Of a stretch of DNA of 64,000 nt, positions 58,932 through 64,000 are shown piece by piece. The translations under genes were made by a program, and so were the position numbers. Numbering within the stretch: the first letter of the stretch is position 1; the number at the start of each line of letters is the position of its first letter. The notes beneath the pieces are model-generated. The model saw only the letters and a list, made by a program, of their open reading frames with translations. It was not told the DNA's origin and did no database searches. Origin of the DNA: an uncultured Bacilli bacterium (GTDB lineage: Bacteria > Bacillota_I > Bacilli_A > RF39 > UBA660); NCBI GenBank assembly GCA_934096295.1, contig CAKOLL010000002.1:136966-200965 (forward strand). The letters run 5' to 3'.

Positions 58932-59030
58932 GATTGATAGGAAACTCGAACTTTTATAAATTCGAGAGTAATAAATTACTAACAGAAATGTTAGTTTTTT
59001 TGTTATTTAAGAAAGGAAAAGTGATGAGTT

Positions 59031-59300
59031 ATGACAATAGAAACTAAAGAACTTGTAATAAGTGAAGAATTAAAAAGAAAGGTAGAAATGATTTGTAGGT
59101 TTGCTTATGTTGACTACACTATCACAAATGGAAATATTAAAAGTATTAAAAACACAAATATTGCTATGGTTAAACCTCATATAGTAAAAATTAAAGGTAT
59201 TGATTATTTAATATTTGATGAATGTGATGATATTTTTATAAATGGTTATAAAGAGAAAATTAAGTTTAAAGATTTTGAAGAATATATTAAAACCCACTAA
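59031..59300 (+). CDS. small hypothetical protein
   Basis: 89-aa ORF, no motif. Confidence 0.3.
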   Translation: MTIETKELVISEELKRKVEMICRFAYVDYTITNGNIKSIKNTNIAMVKPHIVKIKGIDYLIFDECDDIFINGYKEKIKFKDFEEYIKTH

Positions 59301-59440
59301 AACCTTGACAAATCAAGAATAAATGTATATAGTATAGAACTAATAAAAGCAAGCAGTATCGCTTTTTAAAGGGGAAAGAGAGGTACTTCTATGATTAAAA
59401 GCACATATAACATATTTAAAATTTATACTTATTTATTTAA

Positions 59441-59484
59441 GAGGAGTCAAAGGTATTAGTCCCACCTAGTATTTTTGACCCCTC
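59441..59484. promoter_or_regulatory. 44-bp imperfect palindrome immediately upstream of serine recombinase gene; candidate att site
   Basis: gaggagtcaaaggtattagtcc|cacctagtatttttgacccctc, arms match 15/22. Confidence 0.4.
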
Positions 59485-59515
59485 TTTTTTGATAGAAAGT
59501 GAGGTTGATAAAAGT

Positions 59516-61381
59516 ATGAATGAAGAAAAGAAAATCGCAGGTATTTATAAAAGAGTTTCTACACTCGACCAAAAACGTGAGGGTTTTAGTTTACCCGAAC
59601 AAGAAGAAAAATTAAAAGAGTTTTGTAAATTTAAAGGTTATGAAGTTTATAAAATATATGAAGATGCAAGTATAAGTGCTAAAAATGATAAAAGACCAGC
59701 ATATCAAGAAATGATGCAAGATGTTAAAGATAAGAAAATAAATGTTATTGTTGCTTTTAAGTTAGATAGATTAACTCGTTCAGTTTATGATATTGAAAAA
59801 CTTATGAAGTTTGTTAATGATTATGAATGTGATATTGATTGTATGGCTGATGAATCTAATACAACTACTTCAAATGGTAGAATGGTTATGAGAATAATGA
59901 CTAGTGTTTCTCAAAATGAAATTGAAAAATGTAGCGAAAGAACAAAGTTTGGTATGGTAGGTGCTATTAAGTCAGGACACATTCCAAATCGTGCTCCATT
60001 AGGTTTTACAAGAGATAATAAAAAGTTAGTGCCTGACCCTTTAACAAAAGATGTTATTGTTAGAGTATTCGATTTATATTTAGAGGGTAAATCTCATCAA
60101 ACTATTGCTAATATATTTAACAAAGAAAAAGTTTTAGGAAAAACAAATTGGTATGACTCTACTATTCAAAAGATATTATCAAACGAACTTTATAAGGGCG
60201 ATTTTGTAAATGGTAAAAGAACAAAACAACCTACATATTATGAAAATGTTGTTGAGCCAATAATATCAAAAGAAAAATGGGATAATTGCCAAAGTCAAAA
60301 ATTAAGAAATGCTAGACACTATGAAAGAACAGCAACTTACTTATTCACAAATAAACTAATATGTTCTAAATGTGGTAGATTTCTAGGTGGAAGTGCTACG
60401 ACTAAAAAGAATGGAAATAAATATTATTACTATAAATGCGAACATTGTAAAACTAACTTTAAAGAGCAAGAAATAGAAGAAAATATGTTAGCAGCAGTTA
60501 TTGAACTTACTAAAACTGATGAACTTATAAATGATTACTACACACCATTTATTAAATCTAAATTTGATAATAAACAAATAGACTATGACAAACAAATCAA
60601 AGATTTAGATAAACAATTAGATAGAATTAAAACAGCATATATTAAAGGTGTATTGAAACTTGAAGATTTTGATAAAGAGATTAAACACATTGAATTTCAA
60701 AAGAACGATTTAGAAAAGAAATATCAAGAACAAAGACAATATGAAAATTTAAGTTTTACTGTTGATGATTTACTTATCTTACAAGATAAACATAACATTG
60801 ATACATTTGTTAAACCAGAGAAGTTTTTTGCTAATATCTATGGTTGGTTAAATAAGCCAAGAGAAGAAAAACAAAGAATAATATCTACTTACATTGATAA
60901 TTTAGTAGTAGAAAGAAAAGAAGATAAAACAATAGTTAAAGAAACACATTTTAGAACTAGTTTCTTACTTGATATGATTAACTATAATCAAGATTATGGA
61001 CTACCTTTAAATTGGTTTCTATTTGAAGATAACTATGGTTATTCACTACCTATGAATAAAGAATTAAAAACAACAGAACAAGCACAAAATTATTTTAATA
61101 AACTAGTAGAAACATTAGGAAGTGATTACAAATTAAATTATTATTTTGTTTATCCAAATGATGATTTAAGCGATATAAGTTTTACTTCAAATGTAGATAT
61201 TGAAAAAATAATTAGAATTATTGCTATTAACGATAAAAAGAAATACAAAGATGATAAATTAAAATTTGGAATTATAACTATTGATTTAAGCGATATTAAA
61301 AATATAAATGGCGAGCAACTTTATAAAGGTTTCTTTGAAAAGTTTAAGGAGATGTGTGATAATGAGTTATGCGATATTTAG
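59516..61381 (+). CDS. large serine recombinase (integrase)
   Basis: Resolvase catalytic domain '[10 protein letters not shown]...[11 protein letters not shown]', recombinase domain, zinc ribbon 'CSKCGRF...YKCEHC', C-terminal coiled coil; ~620 aa. Confidence 0.9.
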
Positions 61382-62606
61382 AGTCGAGCCAATATATAAA
61401 ATAGCAGATTTAGCACAAATCGGATCGCACAACAAACGAGAGAAAAAAGCATATAAATCTAACCCCGATATAGATATTACAAAAACTAAAAATAATATTG
61501 AACTAGTCCCACTTTCAGAGAAATACATTAAAGGTTTTTATAATCTAACAAAAGAGTATAAAAAAGAACACGATAAACGAATGGAAACAATGAGAGATGA
61601 TAGAAAGAAAACATTTAAACAAATGGTAGATGACGCAAATAATGTAGTCGCAGATGAATTACTATTTACTAGTGATAGTGATTTCTTTAAAGATATGAAT
61701 AAGAAACAAATTAAAAAATGGGCTGATATTTGTATGGAATTTGTTTATGAAGATTTAGGTTATACAAAAGAACAAATATTACATGCTACACTACACCTAG
61801 ATGAAAAAACACCACATATTCATTGTGTAGTTGTTCCCTTAATTAGAAAGTTTGATAAAAGAACTAATACTGAAAAATATACTATTTCTAAAAAAGAATA
61901 TATCAAATCTAACGCCCATTTAAGCGAACTTCAAGACAAATACCATCAAAGACTAGTAGACAAAGGTTTTGACCTTAAAAGAGGCATTAAAAACAGCAAT
62001 AACGAGCACATTTCAATAAAAGAATTTAAGAAAATTACAAAAAAGTTAGATACTCGTATGGAAAAACAAAATTACCTTATGACTAGAGATTATGAACTAC
62101 TAGAAGAAAAATTAAAAATTGCCAAACCAACAATAAGTGGCAAAGAGGTTAAAATTGATAAAGATACATACGATACACTAAATAACTTTATGCATACATC
62201 AAAAAGAGTTATTAAAGATATGCCTAGAAGTCAAGCATTATTTAAAGAACTAACAGACTACACACAAACATATAAAGATATAGAACAAGAAAGAGATAAT
62301 ATTAAGGTTGAAGTTAAATTATTAGAAAAACAAAATGAAAAATTACAACAAGATTACGATAATTTATTTAACTTACTTAAAACTATCTTACAAGCACTAA
62401 AAAAATTCTTTAAACGATTATTAAAAATAGGAACTGAAAATGATAAAGATGATGTTGTTGATGAAATAAAAGAGTATCACAAAAATAATCTTTACGATAA
62501 TGAAGATTTACACGACATAGCAGATAATACTACAAGAGAAGAAGAAATAAACGATTATTTATACAAAATAAATTATGAATATGATGATCGAGATTTTGAT
62601 ATTTAA
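61362..62606 (+). CDS. MobV-family (Mob_Pre) plasmid-mobilization relaxase
   Basis: N-terminus '[27 protein letters not shown]' (MSY...HN.R) and '[16 protein letters not shown]' (HxDE..PHxH) are MobV signature motifs; AAGGAG RBS. Confidence 0.75.
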
Positions 62607-62624
62607 AAAACGAGCAACAGCTCG

Positions 62625-62700
62625 TGAAAAAAGACCATTTTGTCGAAATGGTAACACACTACGCTATTGGCAAAGCCAATAACGGTGTGAAAAAGGGAAA
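62625..62700 (-). promoter_or_regulatory. candidate oriT: minus-strand TAGTGTGTTA (pMV158-type nick sequence) flanked by hairpins
   Basis: Plus strand reads ...ccattttgtcgaaatgg taacacacta cgctattggcaaagccaa...; reverse complement contains tagtgtg/tta between inverted repeats ttggctttgccaa and ccatttcgacaaaatgg. Confidence 0.4.
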
Positions 62701-62854
62701 TTCCCTTTTTAATCCCTTTTAATCATAATTTTAGCAAGGCATATAAAGCCAAGCAAAATTATGTTTTTATTTTCAAAACTTCGTAATGAAAATAAAGAAA
62801 AGTTCTAATGAAATAACAATTATTAGAACTTTTTAAACATATTCAAAAAACAAA

Positions 62855-63349
62855 TTATCGTCTTGGGCTACGATTATTTCCTTTTGCATTTTCTATATCA
62901 GCATCAATTGAACGAAGTTGTTCTTGTAATTTTGCCATTTGAGCCATTACTCTTTCTCTCTCTTGAATTTTTCTTGTTATAAATTGATCTGATAACTTAG
63001 TTTGTAATTCATCAAGTGATTTAAAAAAGTCTTCTTTAGTTAATATACCATATCTATCACAAACAAAAAGTTGCAATTTAGCATTATCCATAACAGTAGG
63101 TTTAGTTTTAAGAACTGGAGCAAAAGGATTTTTTTCTAACCCTTTTCCCAAATAATTCCAACCTTCATGTTTAACTTCTGATAAGCCACCACCTATACCA
63201 TCCATTTCTTCCATTGTTGTATAAGTACCATATACAATGTTATTATTAACTTCTTCTCTTAGACCGTTTTTTTCTAAAAAATCCCTTAAAAGATATCCTC
63301 TTAATTCAGCATCAATAGTTATTATTGAATTATTTTGAAAATTACTCAC
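62855..63349 (-). CDS. hypothetical protein (element cargo)
   Basis: 164-aa ORF with RBS ggaggtg; no motif. Confidence 0.4.
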   Translation of the reverse strand: MSNFQNNSIITIDAELRGYLLRDFLEKNGLREEVNNNIVYGTYTTMEEMDGIGGGLSEVKHEGWNYLGKGLEKNPFAPVLKTKPTVMDNAKLQLFVCDRYGILTKEDFFKSLDELQTKLSDQFITRKIQERERVMAQMAKLQEQLRSIDADIENAKGNNRSPRR

Positions 63350-63417
63350 ATTAACACCTCCTTGTTAATATAATTATAGCATATAAATAACACATTTTGG
63401 TTAATAATTAATATTAT

Positions 63418-63654
63418 TTATCTTCTTTTAAACATTTGATTTTCACAGCCTATTTTTAAAACACTTCTTAATTCCCATATTTTTTCATCAATACCAGGAA
63501 ATCTATCATCAATGGCTCTTTGTTCTAATAATTCCAAATTACTAGATAGTAATGAATCCAATTGGTGCATTTCTTCTTCTTCATTAGGGGTTAAATCACC
63601 AAAATAATGATGTCGATCTTTTAATTCTTTAAGGCGTTTAATGTCGTCATTCAT
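63418..63654 (-). CDS. hypothetical small protein (element cargo)
   Basis: 78-aa ORF with aggaggtt RBS. Confidence 0.35.
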   Translation of the reverse strand: MNDDIKRLKELKDRHHYFGDLTPNEEEEMHQLDSLLSSNLELLEQRAIDDRFPGIDEKIWELRSVLKIGCENQMFKRR

Positions 63655-63940
63655 AAATAACCTCCTTGTTATTAATTATTATACCATATTTTTGCGTAAA
63701 TTAAAAATTTTGATTAAAGGAATTGGCAACTTTATTATTAAAAAAATAAAAATTGTGATATAATTATATTAGTTAGTAGTTATTACTACCTATAAATTTA
63801 TGCCTAGTGGTTGTTATACTTCCACCAAAAGGGCACCATTGACGAATCTGTTCGAACTATTCGAACTTTGATATATAGAAATCAATCGAAATGATTGATT
63901 TTTTTCGTTTAGAAAAAAATCATAGGAAAGGTTGGTGTCT

Positions 63941-64000
63941 ATGATAAATATTATCAAAAAAGAAATTGATGTAGAAGAATCATTAAGAAAGAGATTAGAA
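63941..64000 (+). CDS. 5' end of an unidentified CDS running off the window
   Basis: ATG with upstream aaaggttggtg; only 20 codons visible. Confidence 0.2.
   Translation, partial: MINIIKKEIDVEESLRKRLE

Follow-up and report, generated by a model that had tools for sequence, protein, structure and literature searches.

A 4.9-kb element of uncultured gut Bacilli, probably integrative and mobilizable, whose serine recombinase has relatives at the CCA ends of many tRNA and tmRNA genes

The element described here lies in a 64,000-nt stretch of contig CAKOLL010000002.1 (GCA_934096295.1; contig positions 136,966-200,965) from an uncultured Bacilli bacterium. This whole stretch is called the window, and all coordinates are positions in it unless another contig is named. 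The element occupies 58932-63838 on the plus strand (4,907 bp, with the right-hand GCACCA counted in), begins directly behind the CCA that ends a tRNA-Leu(UAG) gene, and encodes a large serine recombinase (LSR) and a MobV relaxase. Very likely it is a complete integrative mobilizable element (IME), and its LSR family uses the CCA end of essentially any tRNA gene or transfer-messenger RNA (tmRNA) gene. As an IME it is of a known general kind; landing on the CCA ends of any tRNA or tmRNA gene appears to be new for such elements. An earlier, sequence-only reading of the window had recognised a mobilizable element beside tRNA-Leu with an LSR, a MobV relaxase and a pMV158-type nick region, and the position at which it began the element, 58932, is exact. 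It missed the use of the CCA ends of many tRNA and tmRNA genes by the recombinase family.

Scanning one genome per GTDB species identified 278 relatives of the recombinase, and the locus counts given here come from the best 80 of these 278. In the 80 loci the module formed by the recombinase gene and a small gene, orf89, always opens with the 20-mer GATTGATAGGAAACTCGAAC or a close variant. In the window this conserved 20-mer, the putative half-site P', is found at 58932-58951 on the plus strand and runs into a hairpin at 58945-58966; it is present at every left end. CCA directly precedes the left end in 72/72 genuine copies. The GTDB loci provide 64 left ends. Of these, 46 directly follow the 3' end of a gene for a tRNA or, in 6 loci, for tmRNA, and the remaining 18 are in tandem arrays, next to a tRNA fragment or to another element's right end. 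The tRNAs used number 14: Leu-tag, Leu-caa, Leu-gag, Ala-tgc, Gly-tcc, Gly-gcc, Cys-gca, Thr-ggt, Thr-cgt, Lys-ttt, Lys-ctt, His-gtg, Phe-gaa and Ile-gat.

Nearly identical copies of the element occupy different genes in different species (L numbers are working labels of the compared contigs). Full 4,907-bp copies with 99.80-99.94% identity are found at tRNA-Leu-tag in another species, where the neighbouring host protein is only 82% identical (L015), at tRNA-Leu-caa in Acholeplasma sp. CAG:878 (L016), and at tRNA-Ala-tgc (L020 and L021). A copy with a deletion, 99.7% identical, lies at the tmRNA gene of Firmicutes bacterium CAG:460 (L017). The recombinases of these near-identical copies are at least 99% identical, and one identical recombinase protein, P0006, which is 93% identical to that of the window, is found at three different sites. 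If the classical single-site model applied, the recombinase would be specific for tRNA-Leu(UAG) and the other tRNAs would hold diverged recombinases, each with its own specificity, as is the case for tyrosine integrases. The more distant members do show some bias of this kind, with T before CCA mostly at Gly and Cys tRNAs (U73) and A at A73 tRNAs, but copies 99.7-99.94% identical sit at four genes and P0006 at three sites, so these are not diverged enzymes with separate specificities. Since the targets also have in common only C-N-CCA and a generic T-loop, single-site specificity is highly improbable.

The 49 distinct tRNA-type target arms conserve only the CCA, the T-loop GTTC at -24 to -21 and, at -5, the C of tRNA position 72. 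This C is invariant both in the tRNA arms and in the 19 non-tRNA arms that were obtained without bias. No constraint is seen on the right half of the target. In the window, the target gene tRNA-Leu(TAG), with anticodon UAG (58847-58931, plus strand), was identified by ARAGORN, Rfam and the junction alignment. It has its T-loop GTTC at 58908-58911 and ends in GCACCA at 58926-58931 (CCA at 58929-58931), which is the left copy of a 6-bp repeat. It is preceded by tRNA-Met(CAT) at 58764-58840 (ARAGORN and Rfam), and these two tRNAs were the only hits in an Rfam scan of the window. The pair followed by a small open reading frame (ORF, here 59031-59300) is as the sequence-only reading had it.

The borders of the element are defined by an empty site, by stand-alone contigs and by the full-length copies. 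The empty site is found in L014, a contig of a strain called 99% identical that was found through the host gene preceding the tRNAs; this answers the earlier proposal that related genomes be searched for one. The flanks in L014 are 98.5-99.4% identical to those in the window, exactly 4,907 bp are missing, and the alignment blocks overlap on GCACCA. The left junction is ...CGCTTGCACCA|GATTGATAGG at 58931|58932, i.e. CCA|GATTGATAGG, and the right junction is ...CCAAAAGGGCACCA|TTGACGAATC at 63838|63839, i.e. GGGCACCA|TTGACG. The empty site in L014 reads ...CGCTTGCACCA|TTGACTAATC, and the predicted empty-site junction is also written ...CGCTTGCACCA|TTGACGAATCTG. The tRNA-Leu gene is left intact by the insertion, and the repeat between the ends is GCACCA only, with no tRNA fragment duplicated. 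The sequence-only reading had let the element run off the window, which was mistaken: the right end is at 63838, and what follows is a decayed tandem relative.

The exact recombinase protein is present on several metagenome contigs. L001 covers the same chromosome region as the window and reaches beyond its end. L003 and L004 are independent 4,915-bp contigs that correspond to 58926-63840, cut at GCACCA on the left and at GCACCATT on the right, with no terminal overlap. L002 matches the window up to 63840 and diverges after GCACCATT, its right flank (14326-14804) containing a membrane-protein-like ORF. This implies that the element is present in several genomic contexts in the samples of L002, L003 and L004. 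The element is a discrete unit with an empty site, its own integrase, and its own relaxase and predicted origin of transfer (oriT). Its 4.9 kb contain no type IV secretion system, coupling-protein or replication genes, and the further ORFs are orf89, orf164 and orf78 only.

The position of the crossover is indicated by the tRNA-Ala copies and by L045. The tRNA-Ala copies have TCCACCA, which is that of the tRNA, at the left junction and GGGCACCA, which is that of the element, at the right end, and L045 retains the discriminator C of tRNA-His at the left junction and has T at the right end. The crossover is therefore placed to the right of the discriminator base, within CCA (CC or CA), which is compatible with the exchange at 2 bp that serine recombinases carry out. 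In most elements, the base that precedes the right-hand CCA is the same as the discriminator base of the tRNA used, L045 being an exception. The right end of L017, CAC-AA, was considered as a crossover to the left of CCA and rejected on the basis of L045 and the tRNA-Ala copies; it is read as a point mutation in a decaying copy, since L017 has also lost 371 bp.

The right end of the element, ...AGTGGTTGTTATACTTCCACCAAAAGGGCACCA (63794-63838, plus strand), is the putative half-site P, with GGTTG at 63809-63813 and the right copy of GCACCA at 63833-63838, and its sequence does not vary among the near-identical copies, regardless of what flanks them. With CC as the centre, the left attachment site attL (58908-58951) has the symmetric form GTTC-N17-CC-N17-GAAC, its right-hand GAAC lying within the left-end 20-mer, and the right end of the element has the form GTTG-N22-CC, with the arm offset by 5 bp. 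Of 49 right ends, 31 have the first base of GTT at -29 and 10 have it at -28 (41/49); in the tRNA arms it is at -24 (49/49). In structural work on large serine integrases (Rutherford et al. 2013), the zinc-ribbon motif is reportedly shifted 5 bp outward in the element site attP relative to the chromosomal site attB. The attP junction is predicted to be ...CTTCCACCAAAAGGGCACCA|GATTGATAGGAAACTCG.

In the mechanism that we propose, the LSR would have recombined a circular form of the element with the chromosome inside the CCA ending the tRNA-Leu(UAG) gene. Recognition would likely involve two features: CCA, together with C72, as the core of the crossover, and GTTC of the T-loop, which lies 17 bp further left and is almost universal. 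Element right ends carry GC-N-CCA and RGTT, and they would therefore be used as targets too, giving rise to tandem arrays. A more far-reaching reading is that the clade, alone or with orf89, recognises a target class (the DNA of T-loop, acceptor end and CCA in any tRNA or tmRNA gene) and would be the first serine integrase with generic tRNA-gene landing, that CC is where the crossover takes place and GTTC of the T-loop serves as outer contact, that the right end presents the same signals shifted by 5 bp, and that the system is coupled to an attenuator; we consider this reading about evenly poised between right and wrong.

orf89 (59031-59300, plus strand) encodes a conserved accessory protein of 89 aa and starts 100 nt past the junction, here and in the close copies. 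It is always the first gene, adjoins the recombinase gene in nearly all loci, and its products are 50-100% identical. None of its 725 homologues has a domain, and the protein had no match in Pfam, PHROGs, NCBIfam or PADLOC. AlphaFold gave a model with a predicted local distance difference test (pLDDT) score of 90.8, for which a structural search returned no match. orf89 is a candidate directionality or targeting factor. It is possible that orf89, or a host factor that binds tRNA genes, picks the target and recruits a recombinase of low specificity, like the target selectors of transposons. The co-conservation of orf89, its place as first gene and its confident novel fold without a known relative would suit such a role, as would the unconstrained right half of the target and a site geometry that is atypical for an LSR alone. 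LSR integration normally needs no accessory protein (PMC12286644, PMC5704250), and small accessory proteins of LSR systems are usually excision (directionality) factors; both points count against a target selector. The recombinase, furthermore, has its own clade-specific C-terminal region of ~180 aa, and the GTT motifs lie at LSR-like distances from the crossover. We regard a separate target selector as rather unlikely.

The recombinase gene (59516-61381, plus strand) encodes 621 aa if translation starts at ATG 59516 and 630 aa if it starts at TTG 59489. The ~620-aa serine recombinase with an RVSTxxQ motif and a zinc ribbon that had been read from the sequence was confirmed by three Pfam domains: Resolvase (PF00239, E=1e-32), Recombinase (PF07508, 71 bits) and Zn_ribbon_recom (PF13408, 29 bits, cutoff 25.3). 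The catalytic serine is in RVSTLDQ (YKRVSTLDQ in the window) and is invariant in the recombinase alignment; the CxxC...CxxC was read from the translation. DUF4368 is absent from the Pfam matches at E<=0.01, and the TnpX structure 2MHC matches weakly and only at N-terminal residues 5-91 (E=5e-5). The C-terminal residues ~443-621 are clade-specific: an exhaustive profile search returned ~109 cluster representatives, fragments and full-length proteins together, which in our reading belong to the same recombinase clade. The AlphaFold model of this C-terminal domain (pLDDT 53) was too poor to use. Recombinases of plasmids and phages reach at most ~35% identity, over the N-terminal ~55% only, and no plasmid or phage record resembled the element beyond short stretches of mob or recombinase. 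The homologues of the recombinase in gut metagenomes number in the thousands.

The relaxase gene (61362-62606, plus strand) overlaps the recombinase gene by 20 nt, an overlap that is conserved in relatives, and encodes a MobV (MOBV1-type) protein of 414 aa. The N-terminal motif H23-N-K-R26 (HNKR), read from the translation, includes H23, which we take to be the equivalent of the catalytic histidine of MobM. The match to PF01076, which the sequence-only reading had named as the check for this overlapping MobV relaxase, is above its cutoff (E=1e-29, 104 bits, cutoff 25.5), as is that to NF041497 (121 bits, cutoff 100). The protein also matches the pMV158 MobM domain 4LVI (E=1.4e-14), including HLDExTPHxH, the metal-site motif that is HLDESTPHMH in MobM.

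It could be supposed that this Mob/Pre protein, and not the serine recombinase, integrates the element at an oriT-like site, as PF01076 proteins were first described as plasmid recombination enzymes, which is the name of the Pfam family. The junction CCA|GATTG is unlike the nick motif GTGTG/TT, and family members without MobV have the same ends, which makes this hardly credible. These members (L039-L049) have recombinases that are 67% identical, with the recombinase gene ~63 nt after orf89 and no attenuator, and in L044 a 393-aa ORF, judged by eye to be IS110-like, is in place of MobV (10301-11482), the ends again being at a tRNA CCA. These variants argue that the module of recombinase and orf89, and not the relaxase, determines insertion.

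Downstream of the relaxase gene, the minus strand has TAGTGTGTTA at 62652-62661 between two hairpins, as the sequence-only reading had noticed. The predicted oriT (62635-62689, minus strand) has a pMV158-like layout, CACAC-CG-TTATTGGC-TTT-GCCAATAG-CG-TAGTGTG/TTA-CCATTTCGACAAAATGG, with the nick predicted between 62655 and 62654. The 10-mer TAGTGTGTTA alone is not significant, since 0.32 occurrences are expected per window and at least one was found in 27/100 shuffles. In 14 loci with relaxases that are 43-100% identical, AGTGTGTT and ACAC are invariant, the main repeat is 91% paired with 5/10 compensatory pairs, and the neighbouring hairpin varies in sequence and keeps its pairing. It is because of this conservation, and not because of the occurrence of the 10-mer, that the site is called a pMV158-type oriT, which by its pattern of conservation it appears to be in fact. 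After excision, MobV would nick the minus strand at TAGTGTG/TTA, and transfer of the strand would then fall to a co-resident conjugative helper.

The oriT of pMV158 reads GCACACACTTTATGAATATAAAGTATAGTGTG/TTATACTTTA (PMC3105389; nick site PMC5090054). The two systems share the relaxase domain, HxDE...PHxH and HNxR, the decamer TAGTGTG/TTA, the preceding inverted repeat and the CACAC...GTGTG flanks (PMC3105389, PMC5090054, PMC5863519). In pMV158 the oriT is upstream of mobM and overlaps its promoters, whereas here it is downstream of mob and on the opposite strand. Likewise, the inverted repeat IR1 of pMV158 is 8 nt from the nick and IR2 encompasses the nick, whereas here 8-9 nt lie between the end of the upstream repeat and the nick, beyond which there is a separate hairpin. 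IMESag-rpsI of Streptococcus agalactiae, which was compared alongside pMV158, is named for a different integration site, rpsI.

Several points weigh against a mobile element with generic CCA targeting. Searches for the exact 34-nt attP junction found nothing in IMG/VR or among JGI metagenome contigs, and a degenerate 24-nt attP pattern gave one match, in L095, which is a tandem junction with no recombinase nearby. Ten small contigs with identical recombinases showed no circular permutation and no terminal overlaps, and no helper conjugative element was identified. The arm of the left end has attB-type and not attP-like spacing, and the geometry fits the classical LSR model poorly. The motif statistics draw on right ends that were gathered in part with patterns containing the motif. 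A hairpin in the right end that would mimic a T-arm had a mean best stem of 5.8 vs 5.5 in shuffles, which is not significant; this claim was dropped after the shuffle test, and the positional RGTT motif was kept. The target may be read by the recombinase with or without orf89, the conservation of which is just as strict. Finally, some host labels are clearly those of mis-binned contigs of metagenome-assembled genomes (MAGs; Muribaculaceae, Saccharimonas), so that MAG species counts are approximate.

The lack of a detected circular form could also mean that the element is an inactive relic, fixed and no longer mobile in this lineage; some copies decay (L017), and there are remnants that lack a recombinase. 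In the window, however, all genes are intact, and presence or absence of the element is polymorphic among strains with 98.5-99.4% identical flanks. Copies in different species, moreover, differ by 3-11 substitutions over 4.9 kb, and L002 has another right flank. A relic is therefore improbable.

The recombinase and relaxase genes are preceded by a region (59305-59490, plus strand) that may be a translation-coupled attenuator. A promoter-like sequence, TTGACA-17-TATAGT (59305-59333), is a consensus match only (11/12) and is conserved in the alignment; it is the putative start of a transcript with leader, recombinase and relaxase. A leader ORF of 22 codons with the Shine-Dalgarno (SD) sequence GAGAGGT follows (59391-59459), and its stop codon TAG is formed by the last 3 nt of the 5' arm of a hairpin. 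This hairpin is the 44-bp imperfect palindrome at 59441-59484, which with its T-run (TTTTTT, to 59490) has the form of an intrinsic terminator, as indicated by a terminator scan and by covariation. In 18 diverse relatives, 94.7% of the cells are paired and 9/19 pairs are compensatory; the covariation score was reached by 0/500 shuffles, and shifted registers were only 42-61% paired. Of 40 distinct leaders, 37 have an SD-preceded ORF of 18-25 codons that ends in the 5' arm, in the loop or at the start of the 3' arm, and in relatives these ORFs have differing frames and encode differing peptides.

The attenuator reading is based on this overlap of a conserved terminator hairpin by a leader ORF. 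A ribosome that has reached the leader's last codons would open the 5' arm and so allow transcription into the overlapping recombinase and relaxase genes, which are probably read from one promoter and whose expression would depend on translation of the leader. Leader-peptide attenuators likewise have a promoter, an SD and short ORF, and an intrinsic terminator with an ORF-covered 5' arm; here, too, the arrangement is ahead of mobility genes, and it is without a resistance gene or a known inducing signal. The orf12 leader upstream of tet(M) in Tn916 is a comparable case.

The sequence-only reading was right about the presence and extent of the palindrome and wrong in taking it as att-like. Attachment sites of LSRs are imperfect palindromes of 40-50 bp and this one is just upstream of the recombinase gene, which would be in keeping with an element that starts there. 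The border is 510 bp to the left, at 58931|58932, and the T-run, the RNA-like covariation and the overlap with the leader ORF all speak against this, so that an attachment site at 59441-59484 is scarcely tenable. A second hairpin, ACTAACAGAAATGTTAGT with a T-run (58978-59001, plus strand), was read from the sequence just downstream of the tRNA, and relatives have a counterpart, e.g. GCTAACTAGAAATAGTTAG with Ts. It is terminator-like, and the element may thereby supply the tRNA with a terminator.

The cargo lies in a variable slot. Relatives at 85-94% identity share element positions 1-3870, which comprise orf89, recombinase, relaxase and oriT, as well as the last ~100 bp, and differ in a slot at element positions ~3870-4807. 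In the window this slot contains the two small minus-strand ORFs that had been seen earlier: orf164 (62855-63349), an orphan with 6 homologues and no family match, and orf78 (63418-63654), also with no family match and restricted to the near-identical copies. The cargo of Tn4451 includes a resistance gene, whereas the cargo here consists of two orphan ORFs. In L017, a 371-bp deletion lies in orf164 (8383-8856) and the right-hand CCA has become CAA; this copy is probably immobilised and decaying.

The sequence to the right of the element (63839-64000, plus strand) belongs to a decayed tandem relative, with a left-end-like TTGACGAATCTGTTCGAAC... and a frameshifted orf89 homologue from 63942. A tblastn comparison of orf89 with L001 14444-14649 gave E=6e-7, with an internal stop and a frameshift. 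More distant strains, which are without the remnant (L006-L013), pass straight from tRNA-Leu to an HD-domain gene. The remnant is thus older, and the present copy went in between it and the tRNA. The decayed relative continues in L001 from 14324 to ~17600, with ORFs of 181 and 325 aa that have no domain match. In the family, tandem arrays are common, as are remnants, and tandem junctions suggest that element right ends act as secondary targets. In L027, L040, L057, L083, L087, L090, L095 and L096, what stands before the left end is not a tRNA but another element's right end (...GGCACCA or ...CGCTCCA). L011 has a gene of IS605 OrfB/TnpB type with a Cas12f-like TNB domain (10854-11996) just downstream of the same tRNA-Leu, which is a sign that this site is an insertion hot-spot.

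The host of the window copy is a low-GC gut bacterium of the Bacilli/Mycoplasmatota kind. The best 80 loci come from uncultured gut Bacilli, 'Tenericutes' or Mycoplasmatota, including Acholeplasma sp. CAG:878, Firmicutes bacterium CAG:460 and Candidatus Faecisoma, and were sampled from human, goat, rabbit, mouse and deer. L019, L050, L052, L078, L022 and L062 are binned as Saccharimonas, Muribaculaceae, Oribacterium or Roseburia MAGs, for which a small mobile contig placed in the wrong bin is a likelier reason than true spread to these hosts. Upstream of the element in the window are dnaE and polC (50897-58048) and, after them, a conserved gene of small size (58239-58658). The genes of the replicative polymerases abut on the same strand, dnaE (945 aa) ending at 53734 and polC (1437 aa) starting at 53735. 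The product of 58239-58658, a hypothetical protein of 139 aa, is found as the exact sequence in 2,651 blocks of the assembly index, and the host is therefore a very common gut organism. L005 has the same 139-aa protein and the tRNA pair in another neighbourhood, with SMC upstream.

Tn4451 and Tn4453 of Clostridium, which encode TnpX and the Mob/Pre protein TnpZ, are similar in being small mobilizable elements with one LSR, a MobV-type relaxase and no mating-pore genes, and also in having several targets and a very short end repeat (PMC5704250). The integration of Tn4451 has low specificity and takes place at 2-bp identical sequences, not at tRNA ends (PMC5704250), whereas 72/72 copies here are found after CCA; the recombinase, too, has only the weak N-terminal match to TnpX. 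The ssrA islands of Dehalococcoides (DsiB), the actinomycete integrative and conjugative elements (AICEs) of Mycobacterium at tRNA-Leu, and phage phiRSM1 at tRNA-Ser are also cases in which a serine recombinase integrates into the 3' portion of a tRNA-like gene and islands accumulate in tandem downstream (PMC3146451, PMC3218068). Each of these uses one gene, whereas one element here uses at least 4 genes. In the ssrA islands, moreover, the repeat is 20 bp long and the crossover lies in the T-loop, as against a 3-6 bp core at CCA here.

The multi-targeting LSRs of Durrant et al. 2022 (PMC10083194) are likewise closely related recombinases at many sites that share a short core. DUF4368 is present in 63% of that clade, the example targets are AT-rich and the core is TT, whereas here DUF4368 was not detected and the targets are a defined functional class; the paper makes no mention of tRNA. 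The islands of tyrosine integrases (Islander class, tycheposons) are also found at the 3' ends of tRNA and tmRNA genes, keep the gene active, and form arrays and remnants (PMC4383910; bioRxiv 10.1101/2020.12.28.424599). In Islander-type islands a tyrosine integrase uses one tRNA each and the gene is regenerated from a tRNA fragment in attP, whereas here the sole recombinase is of the serine family and nothing beyond CCA is carried. Overviews treat the targeting of tRNA genes as a property of tyrosine integrases, and integration into tRNA genes by serine recombinases is called 'rare' (PMC3218068). A literature search of incomplete coverage found no description of one serine recombinase that uses many tRNA genes.

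The element is thus a compact serine-recombinase element at the CCA of at least 14 tRNA species and tmRNA, and the same 4.9 kb is present across several uncultured gut species. CCA ends offer a simple route to a safe and always-present landing site in many hosts, for which no tRNA fragment needs to be carried. With its attP, its recombinase, an 89-aa partner and a natural panel of targets, it is a small system for learning how LSRs read their sites. Signals shifted by 5 bp in the right end would, if true, also explain the tandem stacking, and a leader attenuator, if true, would tie the integration and transfer genes to the translation state of the cell. Serine integrases are widely used in genome engineering, and one that lands on CCA could help in bacteria that are hard to engineer. 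For the reduced-genome gut Bacilli, which lack genetic tools, the element may be a vehicle of gene transfer with a variable cargo slot.

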